From positions 1 through 38,166 of the IMG/VR virus record IMGVR_UViG_3300014039_000009: a stretch of 38,166 bases of DNA. One strand, written 5' to 3'. The notes beneath the pieces are model-generated. The model was not told where the DNA came from and made no database searches. It saw only the letters and a program-made list of their open reading frames with translations. Made by a program: the position numbers and the translations under genes. Numbering within the stretch: position 1 is the first letter of the stretch; each line of letters starts with the position of its first letter. Positions 20,975 through 26,936 of the stretch are shown piece after piece. The stretch is from a virus.

Positions 20975-22552
20975 ATGGCAGTCGAATTTAAAAATCCAAT
21001 CACATTAACTAAAGACTCAACTATATATGGGCATCAATCTCTAGATGAAGGAGGCTTTCCAAAAAATGCAGGCAATGCAAAAGTCTCTCAAATTTTAGAT
21101 TTAGCCCAAACACAAACGCTAGAAAATACCCATGTCGGGGGGAGAAATCTGCTATACAACTCAAAAGGACCAAGAGTTGTAGGACCCTCTAATACAGGGG
21201 CACCGGCAGATAACTATAAGTATGCAACTTATGTCATAACCGAGCCTGTTGAAGTAAATGCAATATATACCTTTACTGCAAGAATAGAGGTTCTAAAAGG
21301 TGACATAGACACTATTACTGTTTATCCACACGACCCACCAGCAGTTAGTAGGAACTTGCCATTAAAAGAAGATGGAACGATTTCTTTTACTGGTATACTC
21401 ACAAATAATAAATTGCCAACGACAATACTGGTATATGCAGGAATAGCAGGGCAAACTCGAGACAAAAGCATAGAAATCTCCGAAGTCAAGCTCGAAAAAG
21501 GCAACATTGCCACCGATTGGACTCCAGCACCTGAAGACGAAATCAAATCTGTGACAACCGAGTATTATCTCTCTACATCTGCAACATCTCTCTCCGGTGG
21601 CTCATGGTCTACAAGTGCTTCCACATGGGTTAATGGTAAATACATGTGGATGAGGACTGTGGTAACTAATGGTTATGGAGATAAGACATATACCCCATCT
21701 GCCAATGGTGTATGTATTGCAGGAGCAAAGGGTGATAAAGGAGATAAGGGAGATAAAGGTGATAAAGGTGAAGCAGGAACTACAACTTGGGCAGGCATTA
21801 CAGATAAGCCGTCATCATTCCCACCAAGTGCTCATAATCACGATGACCGATATTATACAGAGGCAGAGATAGATACCAAATTAGAGGGCAAGGCTAATGC
21901 TAGCCATACACATGATGATAGATATTTCACCGAAACCGAAATCGGCGAATCGGTAACAACTGATACTCTCACCGCAGGCTCAATACAGCCGAAGGGAGAT
22001 GCCAACATCGGCTCTCCTAACCAGAAGTTCAATAAGGTGTATGCGAAAACTCTAAATTTCGATTCTCTGCCCCAATCTGCAAGAGAAATTATTAACATGC
22101 CTATAGCAGGAGCAAACACGAGAGATGGAACAGAGGGTTATCTCAAATGCATATCCATAGAAATCACCGGTTCTTATGCAAATGCCCCTATCTCTTGGAG
22201 AATTACCCAGAGGAATACTCGATCTTCATATAATCTTAGATTCATGAATGCTCCCCACTCCGTGGTTAAAGCGGGCATAAAGCTTCTTAGAATTACTGAT
22301 GTAGCCGACGGTTTTCCTTTTGGTGTTTATGGTGTTGTTTCAGATTCAACAACAATTGATATATATATCCAAAAAAGCGAAGGGTATGATTATATCTCTA
22401 TTAATAGTTGCGATTTACCGGGCTATATGATCAACAGATGCATAATCACATATCCATTAACATTTACATCGTCTTTGCCGGACGGTGCAGTACAAGCATC
22501 ATGTCCAGCCTATATAACCGAATCAGGTCTCTATGGTGCAGTCTTTAACTAG
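20975..22552 (+). CDS. Tail fibre with a collagen-like segment
   Basis: GAKGDKGDKGDKGDKGEAG and a duplicated H-x-H-DDRY-x-TE-x-EI motif. Confidence 0.85.
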   Translation: MAVEFKNPITLTKDSTIYGHQSLDEGGFPKNAGNAKVSQILDLAQTQTLENTHVGGRNLLYNSKGPRVVGPSNTGAPADNYKYATYVITEPVEVNAIYTFTARIEVLKGDIDTITVYPHDPPAVSRNLPLKEDGTISFTGILTNNKLPTTILVYAGIAGQTRDKSIEISEVKLEKGNIATDWTPAPEDEIKSVTTEYYLSTSATSLSGGSWSTSASTWVNGKYMWMRTVVTNGYGDKTYTPSANGVCIAGAKGDKGDKGDKGDKGEAGTTTWAGITDKPSSFPPSAHNHDDRYYTEAEIDTKLEGKANASHTHDDRYFTETEIGESVTTDTLTAGSIQPKGDANIGSPNQKFNKVYAKTLNFDSLPQSAREIINMPIAGANTRDGTEGYLKCISIEITGSYANAPISWRITQRNTRSSYNLRFMNAPHSVVKAGIKLLRITDVADGFPFGVYGVVSDSTTIDIYIQKSEGYDYISINSCDLPGYMINRCIITYPLTFTSSLPDGAVQASCPAYITESGLYGAVFN

Positions 22553-22561
22553 GAGGTGGTC

Positions 22562-23167
22562 ATGGCAAGTGGCGATTTAATTAATTACGCAAATTTCAAG
22601 GCAACCCATGGTGAAAGTTGGGACCAAACGACAGAAGGAACTAACAGTAGTAGTGCTCAAACAACTTTTATTTGTGCACCCTGTTTTGTTACAGGCTTAT
22701 ACATCAATTCTGCATGGGCTTGGGATGGGATAACAGCAAATTGGACTGTATCTTACTACAATGGGTCATCATGGGTTACAGTCTTAAATGAGAACAAATC
22801 AACGTCAGGCATTAATAATGGCTATTGGACTAAATTCTACCACAATCGTAGTTCAGAAGGCACAAGCAGTGGTGATAAATCCAATTATCACTTGTGGAAA
22901 ATAACTGCATCTCCAGTATCATCCACAGGAGGATGGACTAGTAGTTTGTCATGCAAGATAGGAGCATGGGTTGGGGGCATTGCTATGATGACTGAAGCAG
23001 AATACAACAATGTTTGCAAAGGAAAATTAATGAAAGGGTATCAGCCTGCATATTTCACTGGAAGTGAATCAGACTTTCTTTCAAACTATAGTCCTCAAGC
23101 AAAGAGAGGAACACTAATATCGGTATCGACAGGAACATATAAATGGCTAGGAGCGGGAGATTATTGA
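22562..23167 (+). CDS. Trp-rich tail accessory protein (possible carbohydrate-binding fold)
   Basis: ATG at 22562 lies 6 nt after AGGAGG, so I prefer it to the GTG at 22556 used by the track. Pattern WTVSYYNGSSWVTV. Confidence 0.6.
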   Translation: MASGDLINYANFKATHGESWDQTTEGTNSSSAQTTFICAPCFVTGLYINSAWAWDGITANWTVSYYNGSSWVTVLNENKSTSGINNGYWTKFYHNRSSEGTSSGDKSNYHLWKITASPVSSTGGWTSSLSCKIGAWVGGIAMMTEAEYNNVCKGKLMKGYQPAYFTGSESDFLSNYSPQAKRGTLISVSTGTYKWLGAGDY

Positions 23168-23168
23168 T

Positions 23169-23528
23169 ATGGCATTACAAATGAATTTACCAAAAGACAA
23201 AAACCAAATGTATTTCGACTTTCCAAATGCTTATTGGGTTATCGAAGATTTAAATTACACAACAACTGCAGTTGTATTTAGACTAAATGTCTATCCCAAT
23301 AGAGAGAGTAAGCTAATGCAGAATCATGTTTTAGAGAATCCTTCTGTTGGTATTGGTGGTTGTCTAAATGTTATCTCATCAAGACTTTACACATGGCAAG
23401 CTGTCACAGAGATTTCAACAATTTTTCCCACGGGTATTCCTCTATCTGAAAACGAACAGAAGACAGCAATCTACAACTGGATTAAATCTTACACAGGGCT
23501 ACCATTCGAAGATGTCCTTGAAGAATAG
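23169..23528 (+). CDS. Hypothetical protein, last gene of the tail operon
   Basis: 119-aa ORF tightly packed after the preceding gene. Confidence 0.6.
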   Translation: MALQMNLPKDKNQMYFDFPNAYWVIEDLNYTTTAVVFRLNVYPNRESKLMQNHVLENPSVGIGGCLNVISSRLYTWQAVTEISTIFPTGIPLSENEQKTAIYNWIKSYTGLPFEDVLEE

Positions 23529-23754
23529 CTAGAGTTTATGGCTCTTCAAGGGTATAGAGAGCAGTTTAAAAAGTAAACAAAAGCCCCCTCGGGCATTCAG
23601 AGGGAGCAGGGGGTGTAGAGTTAACTACACATTGGTAGAAATTGTTACACAGCTACCAAATTGATTAAAATTATTTTAATCCACAACTTTCGTTGACGTG
23701 TTTAAATATAGATTAGCTTTCTTGCTCTGTCAATCTTTATTTTTTTTTAATTAA

Positions 23755-23786
23755 AGGGCTGACGATTAAATCAGCCCTAGTTTTTT
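23755..23786. terminator. Bidirectional rho-independent terminator
   Basis: agggctga-cgattaaa-tcagccct, with a T-run downstream (agtttttt) and a T-rich tract upstream (tttatttttttttaa) that places an A-run 5' of the hairpin on the minus strand. It sits between convergent operons. Confidence 0.8.
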
Positions 23787-23812
23787 GGTGTCTTTTTCAA
23801 AAGGGACAGATA

Positions 23813-24139
23813 TCAGAGTATTAGCTGTTGTAATTTTACGACATCTGCTTCACTCAAATTCAAATTTTTATTAATAAATGGAATAGGAATATAGGTAACA
23901 CCATATTTGTGCGCGGCTTCCTTCATTCCATTTAAAAATTTTTCAGCATCTATTTGCCCGTCCTCGCATATGCAACCCATTCTTTTTAAAAATGGTAAGG
24001 CATCGTTCAAATATGAAGCAAGTACAGGTCTCTTAAAAAAGCCAACAACCCATTTCACAGGAGTATGAAATCTAGTGACGATTTCTTCTTCGACGAAGAT
24101 TTCGAGTCCGTCTAATATCTGTTCTTCTGATACTGGCAT
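23813..24139 (-). CDS. Hypothetical protein (108 aa)
   Basis: GAGGAG RBS. Last gene of the reverse cassette. Confidence 0.7.
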   Translation of the reverse strand: MPVSEEQILDGLEIFVEEEIVTRFHTPVKWVVGFFKRPVLASYLNDALPFLKRMGCICEDGQIDAEKFLNGMKEAAHKYGVTYIPIPFINKNLNLSEADVVKLQQLIL

Positions 24140-24156
24140 CTTTCACACTCCTCGCC

Positions 24157-24651
24157 TTAGGCTGATGCTCCTGTTGTGGGGGCAGTCCAAGAGTTAAATT
24201 CTTTCATTGGCTGAGGACATACATTAGTGATAGGAATGACAGTCTTTGTTAAGCTGTTTAAGACTGCAATCTGATTTTGCATGACACTGATGTTAGAGAT
24301 TACCTGAGCATTGATTACACCCTGTTCTGCCTTAAAATTGTTTACAGTTCCTTCAAGGGTTCTAATTTTAGAATCCAATCTTTCGTAAACATCAATCATT
24401 TTGCTATCGGTGTTTTTTTCTGCTCTTAATAGTGCATTTTCAGATTCCAATGAGCTAATTTTCTGTCCCTGCTCAAATTCATCCTTGCTGACCCATTGTG
24501 GGACTTTCTGTCCTTGTGCCCCATAGCCGTTATTAAAGCCATTGAAAAACCCACCGAGTCCATTTCCAAGGACTCCGAGTCCTGTGCCGATTGCTCCAAG
24601 GGTGACACCGAGATTTCCCTTGCCGTTGCTTGCATAAGTCATTTCTGCCAT
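24157..24651 (-). CDS. Glycine-zipper membrane / coiled-coil protein (164 aa)
   Basis: AGGAGG RBS. The N-terminus GNLGVTLGAIGTGLGVLGNGLGGFFNGF is followed by heptad-like segments. Confidence 0.75.
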   Translation of the reverse strand: MAEMTYASNGKGNLGVTLGAIGTGLGVLGNGLGGFFNGFNNGYGAQGQKVPQWVSKDEFEQGQKISSLESENALLRAEKNTDSKMIDVYERLDSKIRTLEGTVNNFKAEQGVINAQVISNISVMQNQIAVLNSLTKTVIPITNVCPQPMKEFNSWTAPTTGASA

Positions 24652-24692
24652 ATATAAGCCTCCTACCTATATACCAGAATTATCTCATGTCT

Positions 24693-24992
24693 TTAGGCTC
24701 TCAATTCTCCTAATTTCCTTATAATTTCTTCCTCAGTTACACTTTTTTTAGGATTAGTAAAACCAATAAAAAAAAGAATCTTTTTTAGTGCAAGTAATTT
24801 TTTCTTTTGCAATCCCCCGACGCTGAGGTTAAGAAAATCAGCAACAAACCTTTCATCTTGCATTCTTGAGTATGAGCGTGCAAGAATTTCTTTTTCTAAA
24901 TCTGTAAGCATCGCAAGTTCACAGATTTTCCTTAAAGAGTATTCGTCTATACTCTTTAAACTTTTTGTGAGTAAATTTCTTCTTATATCCAT
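24693..24992 (-). CDS. Small sigma-70 region-4-like HTH regulator (99 aa)
   Basis: LTDLEKEILARSY...ADFLNLSVGGLQKKKLLALKKI resembles sigma region 4 and ArpU/YlxM-type HTH domains. No SD is visible upstream. Confidence 0.6.
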   Translation of the reverse strand: MDIRRNLLTKSLKSIDEYSLRKICELAMLTDLEKEILARSYSRMQDERFVADFLNLSVGGLQKKKLLALKKILFFIGFTNPKKSVTEEEIIRKLGELRA

Positions 24993-25011
24993 ATAACTAA
25001 TTATGATACCT

Positions 25012-25027
25012 TGTTATTATAATAACA
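25012..25027. promoter_or_regulatory. Perfect 16-bp palindrome tgttattataataaca (candidate operator containing TATAAT)
   Basis: Read directly from the sequence; 20 nt upstream of the start of the sigma-like gene. Confidence 0.5.
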
Positions 25028-25079
25028 GTTCAATTTCACTACTAAAAACTTACAAAAAACTTACTTTGCGACAAAATGA

Positions 25080-25193
25080 TTAATAAAAAGACAGATTGTT
25101 AATTTTCTGAAAGATTGTAAATTTTTCTTTACAACTTGATTTTAATCTTTTATAGTTTTCGACATAAAGAAGTAAATCTTCCTTATAATCCAT
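25080..25193 (-). CDS. Possible 37-aa ORF (not in track)
   Basis: Hand translation gives MDYKEDLLLYVENYKRLKSSCKEKFTIFQKINNLSFY. The GGAAGG RBS lies inside the 3' arm of a hairpin. Confidence 0.25.
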   Translation of the reverse strand: MDYKEDLLLYVENYKRLKSSCKEKFTIFQKINNLSFY

Positions 25194-25198
25194 ATTTT

Positions 25199-25233
25199 GC
25201 CTTCCCTGTCCTTGGAATGGGTAGGCTTTTTTT
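25199..25233 (+). terminator. Plus-strand intrinsic terminator
   Basis: gccttccc pairs with gggtaggc (8 bp, one mismatch), followed by ttttttt. Confidence 0.6.
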
Positions 25234-25239
25234 ATGCGT

Positions 25240-25281
25240 AAAAAAAGCACCTAGCAACACCTCTTTGAAGTTGCTGGTGCT
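25240..25281 (-). terminator. Minus-strand intrinsic terminator
   Basis: 12-bp stem agcacc(t)agcaac / gttgctggtgct. The A7 run on the plus strand gives a T7 run after the hairpin on the minus strand. Confidence 0.65.
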
Positions 25282-25410
25282 AAATATTTATTCTAGTAGA
25301 CTTATGATACATTAATTATATATCAAAACTCCGAAATCCACTACAAAAAAAGTTATAAAAAATTATAGTGCTAAGATTTTTATAGTTGGAAAAGGTGTAA
25401 AAAAATCACA

Positions 25411-25560
25411 ATGCGAAAAAGAAAAGAAAGAGAGCCATTATCTGATGAACAGAAAGAGAAGAGGAGTGAAGCAATTTCGAGGATTGTTCTTCCCTTGGCT
25501 AATGCTACCTTGGCAAGTATTGCTCGGGTTGTGGTGGAACACCTATTCAAAGGAGCATAA
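25411..25560 (+). CDS. Possible 49-aa ORF directly upstream of the holin (not in track)
   Basis: Hand translation gives MRKRKEREPLSDEQKEKRSEAISRIVLPLANATLASIARVVVEHLFKGA. Its stop lies 1 nt before the holin ATG. Confidence 0.35.
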   Translation: MRKRKEREPLSDEQKEKRSEAISRIVLPLANATLASIARVVVEHLFKGA

Positions 25561-25561
25561 C

Positions 25562-25915
25562 ATGACAGAATTAATTACAACATTAATTCTCTTTGTTGAC
25601 CAAACATTAATCTATTGGGTTCCATTTTTGGTTGGCGTTGGCTACGCATTAAAGCATTGTACAAAGCTATCAAATAATCTTATCCCTCTAGCAGAGATAG
25701 GAATCGGAGCAATAATCGGGTTATTGTACGGTCTTGCAACTTATGCAGATTCAGAACTTGGTTTTCTGACAGTGCTAGGTTTTGCAGGACAGGGAGCATT
25801 GATTGGTATTATAGCAATCGCTCTTTATGACATGATTCATGGAGTTATCAAGCAGAGAGGATTGTGCAAGCTTGAAAAAAAAGAAAAAGCTAAAAAGGAA
25901 GGTGAGCCAAAATGA
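25562..25915 (+). CDS. Holin-like membrane protein
   Basis: ATG at 25562 is preceded by AAAGGAG, so I prefer it to the track start at 25445. It has three to four hydrophobic segments and a charged C-terminus. Confidence 0.7.
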   Translation: MTELITTLILFVDQTLIYWVPFLVGVGYALKHCTKLSNNLIPLAEIGIGAIIGLLYGLATYADSELGFLTVLGFAGQGALIGIIAIALYDMIHGVIKQRGLCKLEKKEKAKKEGEPK

Positions 25916-26325
25916 AAAAAATTGATTTTTCCAAAATGAGAACATTTACTTGTAATTTTATCGGTGCAATCATTGCCACAATCGTTGCATTCTTGTGCAC
26001 ATTGCCTTGGGGAGTTGGCTATGCTATTGACTGGGTTACAAACCTCATTCTCTATACTGTAATCATAGAGGTTTCTCTCGATTTAGTTATCAAGCTAAAA
26101 AATCAGAAAGAGTTACTCTGTTGGCAGTATTATGTTGGTCTTGTAGCAATCCTCTTGTCTAACTGGAGTTTCATGGCAACAGCAAAGCAGACAGAGAACA
26201 AGCCTTTCTTTATTTGGCTATCCATAACTGCTGCACTTACTGCAGTAACTGGCATTTGGTGGAATAAGGCAGTTAAGGGAGCATACGAAAAGAAGAAAGA
26301 AATTACTGAAGTCAAGGAGAATTAA
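25912..26325 (+). CDS. Four-TM membrane protein (second holin or antiholin candidate)
   Basis: ATGA overlap with the holin gene; hydrophobic segments. Confidence 0.65.
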   Translation: MKKIDFSKMRTFTCNFIGAIIATIVAFLCTLPWGVGYAIDWVTNLILYTVIIEVSLDLVIKLKNQKELLCWQYYVGLVAILLSNWSFMATAKQTENKPFFIWLSITAALTAVTGIWWNKAVKGAYEKKKEITEVKEN

Positions 26326-26327
26326 AG

Positions 26328-26936
26328 ATGTGGAAAAAATCATTTATCTTTTTGGTGGTCTGTCTCTTGGCAGCATCTTCACTTTATTGCTATCCCTCTT
26401 GGGTCTATGGCAAAAAGGAAACTCTGCAAAAAGTGGAGATTCCTGTAGAGACCAAGGAAGAGATTCCAACAGTGGCAATGGAAGAGGAACCAGCACCAGC
26501 AGAGGAGCAGGAGACACCCGAGAGCTCTTTGAACTCGGACGAACCATTGCCAAACGAAACATTGAAGGAGCAGGGAGAACAGTTGAAAAACTCTCTGAAA
26601 GAGGAGAAGGTATCAACGGCAGTAATCGAACAGGTATCTGAATATATCGAAAATACAAATCTCGGAGTTGATGTTATGACAGAGGCTTATAATTTAGAAG
26701 TTGAAAATCATGCAGAAACAGAGAGAGCATTAAAGAAGGTAACAAATGCTTTTCGTTTTACTGTTAATCCTTATATATCCTTTGATAAGAATTTTAAACA
26801 GCTAGAAGGCTATGGCTTGAATTTGATTGTAGCAAAGAAAGGCTTAGGAATCTCAATTGGAGCATATAAGCCAAGCTTCAGTTTTGAAAATTGGGAAGAC
26901 ACTCTGTTAACCACTGGTTTGTCTTTTACCTTTTAA
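26328..26936 (+). CDS. Secreted protein with an acidic/Pro-rich linker and an OMP-like beta C-terminus ending in Phe
   Basis: Signal peptide MWKKSFIFLVVCLLAASSLYC; alternating hydrophobic pattern in the C-terminal region; terminal GLSFTF. Confidence 0.7.
   Translation: MWKKSFIFLVVCLLAASSLYCYPSWVYGKKETLQKVEIPVETKEEIPTVAMEEEPAPAEEQETPESSLNSDEPLPNETLKEQGEQLKNSLKEEKVSTAVIEQVSEYIENTNLGVDVMTEAYNLEVENHAETERALKKVTNAFRFTVNPYISFDKNFKQLEGYGLNLIVAKKGLGISIGAYKPSFSFENWEDTLLTTGLSFTF

Follow-up and report, generated by a model that had tools for sequence, protein, structure and literature searches.

The viral contig IMGVR_UViG_3300014039_000009 of the IMG/VR collection, which we analysed over its full 38,166 nucleotides (nt) and hereafter call the window, contains a block of three small genes that read against their surroundings. 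These genes, named r99, p164, and p108 after the lengths of their products in amino acids (aa), form the cassette described here:

24693–24992, minus strand: r99, open reading frame (ORF) for a 99-aa protein
24157–24651, minus strand: p164, ORF for a 164-aa protein, preceded by an AGGAGG ribosome-binding site
23813–24139, minus strand: p108, ORF for a 108-aa protein, preceded by a GAGGAG ribosome-binding site

An earlier note on the window, made from its sequence alone, had described exactly this arrangement of three reverse-oriented ORFs between plus-strand genes. The genes are closely spaced, with 41 nt between r99 and p164 and 17 nt between the stop codon of p164 and p108. No Shine-Dalgarno site is visible upstream of r99, and the strong Shine-Dalgarno sites of p164 and p108 favour a host in the Bacillota over one in the Bacteroidota. 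On one flank lie the tail-fibre genes (20975–23528), and on the other a holin-like gene (PHROG holin, 2.7e-9), two more genes for membrane or secreted proteins, and an integrase gene; these neighbours all read in the plus direction. A fourth cassette gene is absent from the window. None of the three window proteins matched a family in Pfam, PHROGs, NCBIfam, or PADLOC, in agreement with the earlier note, which had recognised no described defence, exclusion, lysis, or bacteriocin module of this composition.

How widely does the cassette occur? We found 1241 relatives of p164 in a 90%-clustered collection, and the p164 profile, searched against 1.84 billion cluster representatives, matched 904 clusters at 50% identity, 449 of them with E ≤ 1e-10. 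A word-indexed protein search returned only two clusters for p108 and five for r99, and we therefore searched for these partners locus by locus. In the 50 loci encoding p164 relatives, iterative hidden Markov model (HMM) searches of the six-frame ORFs were combined with a codon-usage-scored gene caller, the neighbouring genes were checked by Pfam, and the intergenic gaps were measured. In 34 of the 35 distinct p164 relatives, the next gene after p164 belongs to the p108 family and has the same strand, and in 23 of the 31 relatives with enough upstream sequence an r99-family helix-turn-helix (HTH) gene precedes p164, again on its strand. The three genes have moved together in the inversion seen in the window and in the loci L041–43, L012, and L046–48. 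Since the p164 family is large, and gene order and strand are kept in dozens of otherwise unrelated prophage loci, the three ORFs are real genes and did not arise by chance.

Most of the loci appear to belong to metagenome-assembled genomes of Clostridia (Oscillospiraceae, Lachnospiraceae, Eubacteriales, and Ruminococcus), and DNA and protein searches of cultured phages and plasmids gave no useful relative of the cassette. The trio thus travels as a unit in related phages, which supports the claim of a separate, self-contained cassette; the earlier note had held that confident homology of all three proteins to virion or lysis proteins, or a lack of co-occurrence, would speak against it, and we found neither. 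The trio is best explained as a conserved set of accessory genes that spreads horizontally among the temperate phages of gut Clostridia (Bacillota) and stays beside the lysis genes.

The r99 family carries a DNA-binding fold. Its profile (A3) matches region 4 of extracytoplasmic function (ECF) sigma factors and HTH domains of the LuxR/GerE type in the Protein Data Bank (PDB) with E-values of 1e-5 to 1e-7, including 3hug (1.4e-5), SigL (6dv9, 3.1e-5), EsrB (1.9e-5), DevR (3.4e-5), and NarL. In Pfam, individual members match Sigma70_r4_2 (five members), Sigma70_r4 (four), and GerE (three), as well as HTH_23. The r99 of the window alone has no Pfam match, and the earlier description of the 99-aa protein as sigma-70 region 4-like is therefore confirmed, as a sigma-70 region 4/LuxR-type HTH, at the level of the family profile only. 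In the family alignment the HTH, with the pattern L-T-x-x-E ... I-A-x-x-L-x-x-S, is the only alignable block among members of 66–151 aa. No r99-family member matches Sigma70_r2, and because region 2 is lacking, r99 is no sigma factor but a DNA-binding protein that resembles region 4; a bona fide sigma factor of the UviA/TcdR group 5 or ECF type was rejected for the same reason and for its length of 99 aa. From these family-level matches, r99 is presumed to be the transcription regulator of the cassette.

The most strongly constrained component is p164. Its median identity across 24 distinct loci is 48%, versus 29% for each of p108 and r99, and p164 is the only part of the region that is conserved with unrelated phages at the DNA level (72–76% identity). 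The alignment of 50 relatives and the profile both reveal two strongly conserved blocks. The N-terminal block is the hydrophobic glycine zipper YASNGKGNLGVTLGAIGTGLG, at about residues 14–37. The C-terminal block reads LTKTVIPIxNVCPxPMxxYNSWTAPTT, with the core motif IPIxNVCPxPM..NSWTAPTT and a Ser/Thr-rich tail after it, and its invariant residues include C145, P146, P148, and M149. In the AlphaFold2 model built from the 50-sequence alignment, residues 56–135 form one continuous helix of 80 residues, about 12 nm long, with a predicted local distance difference test (pLDDT) score of 70–89 and termini of low confidence; a heptad register is present. The glycine-zipper segment, the heptad-like helices, and the Cys/Pro-containing tail noticed earlier in the 164-aa protein are all confirmed. 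This strong constraint suggests that p164 may act on a conserved target in the host envelope.

Comparisons of p164 with known proteins returned little beyond its own family. A profile search of the PDB gave coiled-coil noise only. When the model was compared with viral structures (BFVD) by Foldseek, the sole match was an uncharacterised member of the p164 family; the comparison is uninformative, because the model is a single long helix. No holin family in Pfam or PHROGs matches p164. In particular, Holin_BhlA (PF10960) and XhlA (PF10779) give no match at E ≤ 1 and are absent from the PHROG matches, and the XhlA-like proteins of the relatives are encoded by separate genes neighbouring the cassette. 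A search of PADLOC-DB 2.0 with the three proteins and their relatives found nothing significant, the best match being PbeC (E 0.022), which aligns to the coiled coil. Three database proteins in which p164 seems fused to other domains (P0162, 1369 aa; P0211, 887 aa; P0164, 273 aa) were rejected as artefacts of ORF read-through, because the internal Met start is kept.

The third protein, p108, is soluble, with neither a signal peptide nor a lipobox. Its family alignment (A2) shows the motif G..DE.G..D.D.L and a C-terminal DVD.L. No relative was found in Pfam, in PHROGs (including family scans with each member), or in the PDB, where a local motif match to 3fh3 was rejected for its domain E-value of 0.35 and the other matches were coiled-coil noise. 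The AlphaFold2 model, made from a two-sequence alignment, has a pLDDT of 45 and is unusable.

Next, we consider how the cassette is placed in the relatives. In the commonest layout, the tail genes are followed by an XhlA-like gene and a holin gene (Phage_holin_1 or Phage_holin_4_1), an endolysin gene (Amidase_2 or Peptidase_M15_4), r99, and a terminator; after a gap of 90–270 nt come p164, p108, a fourth gene, and the integrase gene or the end of the prophage. In most relatives the cassette has the orientation of the late genes, and only the lineage of the window (L001–4) shows the inverted arrangement. The earlier description of a reverse-oriented block between the tail and lysis modules thus holds for the window lineage but not for most relatives, in which the cassette reads with the late genes and usually follows the holin and endolysin genes, before the integrase gene.

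The position of r99 is close to the lysis genes in a precise sense. In at least 13 loci its start lies −44 to +35 nt from the preceding lysis gene, which encodes an Amidase_2 protein in L039 (with family-mates in L030 and L035), a Peptidase_M15_4 protein in L044, and a member of the Phage_holin_1 family in L022. This tight spacing indicates that r99 belongs to the late or lysis operon in these loci. Of 26 loci, 13 have a terminator-like hairpin in the 90 nt that follow r99, and of 17 loci, 8 have one after the fourth gene; the background is 8%. In the gaps before p164, a full −35/−10 promoter is rare, and 24 of 25 gaps score no better than shuffled sequence, consistent with an activator-dependent promoter. 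The p164–p108 gaps range from 3 to 87 nt across the relatives. In four loci (L016, L030, L035, and L039), a conserved hairpin ending GCTTACTAC is located in the 5′ untranslated region of p164, directly before its Shine-Dalgarno site; its stem changes appear compensatory (GCTGG/CCAGC versus GCCG/CGGC), and it may serve the p164 unit as an RNA element with a regulatory or stabilising role.

The fourth gene varies. In 16 of the 35 variants it encodes a half-rubrerythrin of about 100 aa with a single E...ExxH motif (L044:8871–9170, L017:8876–9175, L025:8725–9030, and 13 others), the profile of which matches symerythrin (4e-10), sulerythrin, rubrerythrin, and bacterioferritin (4e-10 to 1e-6). Such a half-ferritin would need to dimerise to form a di-iron site, and it would be an unusual cargo in prophages of strict anaerobes. 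Elsewhere the fourth gene encodes a DUF7841 protein (4e-24). The literature held nothing relevant for DUF7841, nor for a glycine zipper combined with prophages and exclusion.

Other layouts exist. The cassette precedes the XhlA-like and holin genes in L005–8 and follows a diversity-generating reverse transcriptase in L046–48. In L049–51 it follows a polyvalent-protein gene and a holin-like trio and adjoins the integrase gene. In L041–43 it lies in the orientation of the integrase gene, downstream of genes for a CI-like repressor and a SocA_Panacea protein and upstream of lysis-like genes, all of them opposite to the tail genes. Lysis-type genes are found within a few genes of the cassette in most mapped loci, including L041–43 and L049–51. 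The reverse transcriptase (RVT_1; L046:5359–6396, L048:4771–5841) is encoded immediately upstream of the cassette and probably comes from a diversity-generating retroelement; the p164 proteins of these phages are 85% identical. Several loci (L025:7–7062, L049:1–4688, L041:16122–16486) have genes for giant polyvalent proteins (LPD3, ART-PolyVal; 2351 to more than 4000 aa) shortly before the cassette or before the lysis genes beside it, and the database entries P0162 and P0211 wrongly fuse such proteins to p164.

In the window itself, the following elements surround the cassette genes:

23755–23786, both strands: hairpin between the convergent tail operon and the cassette (hairpin proper, 23755–23778), from a terminator scan and folds
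24993–25410: divergent control region of 418 bp, from r99 to the holin operon
25001–25021 and 25302–25322: direct repeat TTATGATAC..ATTATA, from a repeat search
25080–25193, minus strand: ORF of 37 aa, or 56 aa if the GTG at 25250 is used
25128–25156, plus strand: promoter-like site, from a promoter scan
25205–25234, plus strand: terminator-like hairpin, from a terminator scan
about 25246–25281, minus strand: terminator-like hairpin followed by U7, fold −18.7 kcal/mol, z −3.3, 0 of 200 shuffles as good

The elements between 24993 and 25410 may have regulatory roles, and the control regions have no match among the Rfam families. We propose that in the window the whole cassette has been inverted and is co-transcribed from the 418-bp region, divergently from the holin operon. 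An invertible segment of the shufflon or Gin/Hin type was rejected, as no inverted repeats flank the block (23300–25700); in the near-identical contigs L001–L004 the orientation of the cassette is the same throughout. The 37-aa ORF, which the earlier note had offered as a possible leader, exists, but tblastn found no homologue of it in any related locus. Because it has no conserved counterpart and starts immediately downstream of the minus-strand terminator-like hairpin, it is unsupported as a leader and is probably not a gene.

At the other end of the cassette, the hairpin at 23755–23778 folds with −13.8 kcal/mol (z −2.7) on the plus strand and −14.8 kcal/mol (z −4.0) on the minus strand. The tail transcript, from the plus strand, thereby gains a canonical intrinsic terminator with a proper U-tract. 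On the cassette strand the next bases are UUUAAUUAAAAAAAA (UUUAAUU...), a weak U-tract. The bidirectional terminator claimed earlier for 23755..23786 is accordingly a real hairpin on either strand, but it has a proper U-tract on the plus strand only.

Immediately 3′ of the cassette, at 23575–23733 on the minus strand of the window, lies a candidate gene for a small RNA. Its candidate promoter, TTGACA-17-TATATT at 23733..23705, is near consensus (11 of 12 matches). The candidate transcript of about 124 nt (about 23698–23575) would fold with −38.2 kcal/mol (z −4.3; none of 200 shuffles reached this stability) into four hairpins, the last of which is an intrinsic terminator (GCUCCCUC..GAGGGGGC + UUUUGUUU). 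It has no match in Rfam and no obvious antisense target within the window, and it is common only to the window and the near-identical contigs L001–L004.

What does the cassette do? Our preferred reading, to which we give a probability of roughly 35%, is that it is a regulator-driven, late-expressed module that acts on the envelope and accompanies or tunes lysis. Because homology gives no function, the mechanism rests on architecture and wiring, and from these we infer in which direction r99 regulates, how p164 is oriented in the membrane, the late timing of expression, and any role in lysis.

Regulation would begin with r99, a small DNA-binding regulator of the sigma-70 region 4/LuxR type, which in most phages would be made at the very end of the late holin-endolysin operon. 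It would then turn on the next transcription unit, consisting of p164, p108, and often the fourth gene. Since r99 is retained through the rearrangements and is usually the last gene of the lysis operon, and since the p164 unit usually lies behind a terminator without an obvious sigma-A promoter, the arrangement is most simply explained by a short cascade in which late-made r99 would activate p164–p108.

At the envelope, p164 would enter the cytoplasmic membrane through its glycine-zipper N-terminus and project a coiled-coil stalk of about 12 nm, with the invariant Cys/Pro knob reaching the zone of the cell wall. The soluble p108 would be a cytoplasmic partner that binds or controls p164. Together, p164 and p108 would act on the envelope at lysis, for example by tuning the triggering of the holin or by aiding envelope breakdown, and would not be parts of the virion. 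A single N-terminal hydrophobic segment joined to a long coiled coil is the build of lysis accessory proteins such as the T4 holin T and the i-spanin Rz.

Several observations weigh against this late, lysis-linked role. None of r99, p164, and p108 shows homology to any lysis protein. Canonical holin-endolysin pairs already stand beside the cassette (L044, L039), and the cassette is thus not needed for basic lysis. In half of the relatives a terminator separates r99 from p164, and the p164 unit ends at the edge of the prophage by the integrase gene, the classic position of lysogenic-conversion genes. The fourth genes (half-rubrerythrin or DUF7841) look like host-fitness cargo and not like lysis machinery, and in L025 no recognisable lysis gene adjoins the cassette. 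Finally, the best 19-residue hydropathy window of p164 scores 1.37 (family range 1.14–1.54), which is borderline for a transmembrane helix.

These points lead to the chief alternative, doubtful but nearly as likely as the preferred reading, that the cassette serves lysogenic conversion. Here p164 and p108, with or without the fourth gene, would be expressed in the lysogen from a promoter of their own; p164 in the membrane or wall would block adsorption or DNA injection by superinfecting phages, or would aid the fitness of the host, and late-made r99 would repress or modulate the unit. The placement of the cassette at the prophage end beside the integrase gene in most loci, and of terminators on both sides of the p164 unit, agrees with this. 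So does its mobility: position and orientation vary with the phage backbone while the p164 DNA keeps its 72–76% identity, the cargo-like fourth genes differ between loci, and the unit is independent and inverted in the window. In L041–43, where it lies downstream of the CI-like repressor and SocA_Panacea genes, it follows the integrase in orientation, and it is in general independent of the canonical holin-endolysin pairs.

The same features recall the lysogenic-conversion genes at the junction of lysin gene and attachment site (Sie2009/Ltp type), which share the prophage-end position near the integrase, the bracketing terminators, the variable cargo, and the mobility among backbones. Those loci, however, usually consist of a single gene without a dedicated regulator, whereas here the regulator appears wired into the late operon; exclusion proteins such as Sie2009 and Ltp are not known to have a dedicated regulator in a late operon. 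The coupling of r99 to an endolysin or holin gene in at least 13 loci speaks against this reading, as r99 would then be absent in lysogens. A recognisable sigma-A promoter is also missing from most of the gaps upstream of p164, and exclusion proteins, which as a rule vary along with the phages that they target, are seldom as well conserved as p164 is across its many hosts. No PADLOC match was obtained, and no homology of the cassette proteins to known exclusion proteins was found. The comparative evidence thus leans slightly toward a late, lysis-linked role over an accessory cassette expressed in the lysogen. By position, the cassette is best filed with the accessory cassettes at the lysis-integrase junction of temperate Gram-positive phages.

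An improbable alternative is a membrane toxin with its antidote, akin to abortive-infection or toxin-antitoxin systems, in which p164 would form a glycine-zipper pore that depolarises the membrane, p108 would neutralise it, and r99 would be an autoregulator. Glycine-zipper motifs are typical of pore-forming membrane segments, p164 and p108 are tightly linked behind a regulator (gaps of 3–87 nt), a slowly evolving protein is paired with a rapidly evolving one as in some toxin-antitoxin pairs, and a SocA_Panacea gene lies nearby in L041 and L043. Yet a putative toxin encoded before its antidote, and the 164-aa coiled-coil build, are atypical of known membrane toxins, and neither PADLOC nor Pfam gave a toxin or antitoxin match. 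The most conserved parts of p164, moreover, include the C-terminal Cys/Pro knob, which lies far from the membrane segment and would be superfluous in a simple pore former. Very improbable is a virion or tail-fibre accessory, with p164 as a trimeric coiled-coil fibre or a chaperone: the cassette of the window adjoins the tail-fibre genes, and the long coiled coil with its conserved C-terminal knob is superficially fibre-like, but in the window the cassette and the tail genes are on opposite strands, in most relatives the cassette follows the lysis genes, in many cases beyond a terminator, or is part of the lysogeny region, an HTH regulator accompanies it, and no PHROG structural family shows similarity to it.

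How does the proposed late module compare with known systems? The characterised regulators closest to r99 are the late activators of the RinA/ArpU type, small phage proteins with a DNA-binding part like sigma-70 region 4 that activate a late unit (PMC3152322). r99 likewise is small and phage-encoded, and its DNA-binding part is sigma-70 region 4-like. The genes of RinA and ArpU, however, precede terS, and their products activate the entire operon for morphogenesis and lysis, whereas r99 does not precede the packaging genes: it follows the endolysin or holin gene (in the window, it diverges from the holin gene) and lies directly ahead of p164. We found no significant match of r99 to the RinA or ArpU families; one relative (L007) gave a weak match to DUF1492 (E 0.1).

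The earlier note had named the UviA/UviB loci as the nearest analogy. UviA-UviB of the Clostridium perfringens plasmid pIP404 and TcdR-TcdE do resemble the cassette in that, in Clostridia, a regulator related to sigma factors is combined with a small membrane protein made up of a hydrophobic N-terminal segment and a coiled coil. Homology does not support the analogy: UviA and TcdR are complete sigma factors of group 5 and include region 2, of which r99, with its region-4-like HTH alone, has nothing; p164 is more than twice as long and matches neither the BhlA/UviB and XhlA families nor any holin; and p108 has no counterpart. The likeness is architectural only.

In architecture, p164 and p108 also parallel the T4 holin T and its antiholins RI and RIII. 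The holin T is anchored by one membrane segment at its N-terminus, carries a large cysteine-containing domain outside the cytoplasm, and is controlled by RIII, a small soluble cytoplasmic protein. There is no similarity in sequence or fold, however, the hosts here are Bacillota, canonical holins already stand beside the cassette, and the topology of p164 is predicted. The lambda i-spanin Rz shares with p164 an N-terminal membrane anchor, an extended coiled coil, a conserved cysteine, and a place beside the lysis genes. It differs in that no outer-membrane lipoprotein partner is embedded in or adjacent to p164, p108 having neither a signal peptide nor a lipobox, in that most p164 hosts are apparently monoderm Clostridia, and in that a terminator often stands between the cassette and the lysis genes. 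A two-component spanin was therefore rejected: the build of p164 fits an i-spanin, but there is no embedded ORF, p108 is no lipoprotein, and the hosts are mostly Clostridia.

A more far-reaching proposal, which we consider rather unlikely as a whole, is that p164–p108 under r99 would be an unrecognised, widespread envelope-acting system of Clostridial phages. In it p164 would represent a new class of single-anchor coiled-coil proteins that gate or complete lysis in monoderm hosts, as functional counterparts of antiholins or spanin-type accessories, or that exclude phages via the membrane, and p108 would be the cytoplasmic controller. If this is true, the 904 clusters at 50% identity would place the system among the commoner uncharacterised functional modules of human-gut prophages.

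The cassette is real and widespread and falls in no named family, and one of its components is strongly conserved and keeps the same partners throughout. Although the temperate phages of gut Clostridia, such as those of Oscillospiraceae and Lachnospiraceae, are abundant, little is known of them, and most of their genes for lysis and lysogenic conversion lack an annotation. Once worked out, the role of the cassette would give names to a considerable part of the “dark matter” of the gut virome, show how a sigma-70 region 4-like mini-regulator is wired to the end of a late operon, and possibly reveal a new phage action on the Gram-positive envelope, in lysis timing or in phage exclusion. Even if it proves to be an ordinary set of conversion genes, it provides a gene family that is well delimited and open to experiment, and that can serve to mark the lysis-integrase junction in these prophages.

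The genes around the cassette gave further observations. No recognisable endolysin was found among the window ORFs by Pfam. The “lysis” cluster of the window (25411–26936) is a conserved trio made up of two multi-pass membrane proteins, the first of them holin-like, and one secreted protein, and it recurs at L010:5895–7850, L041:9921–11518, L046:10097–11516, and L049:4901–6502. The secreted protein has a signal peptide, an acidic or coiled-coil region, and a C-terminal β-rich domain of about 60 aa that ends in an aromatic residue (..SFTF, ..GWEW, ..GWMF), which recalls an outer-membrane or trimeric-autotransporter-type anchor. The trio may be an undescribed lysis system or a hint of an unusual host envelope. 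The holin ORF (25445–25915) is probably mis-started: the ATG at 25559 has a GGAG ribosome-binding site, the family match covers residues 47–137 only, and a 49-aa ORF (25411–25560) ends at this start codon.

At 1500–2791 of the window, just upstream of the packaging genes, a gene for a ParB_N-domain protein (1.9e-11) is followed by one for a Mom-family protein (1.9e-53), which suggests that the phage may modify its DNA in the manner of Mu Mom. A search of viral contigs for phages lacking the cassette found no relatives of the window holin and, for the tail fibre, one unrelated phage. The genes at the tail-fibre end (203 aa and 119 aa; window 22484–23577) are 96.5% identical to L045:1185–2277, part of an otherwise unrelated viral contig of 48.6 kb, and the near-identical cassette-bearing contigs L001–L004 part from the window exactly at 23516 or 23567. 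These identity patterns mark recombination breakpoints and thus indicate modular exchange of fibre genes right beside the cassette.

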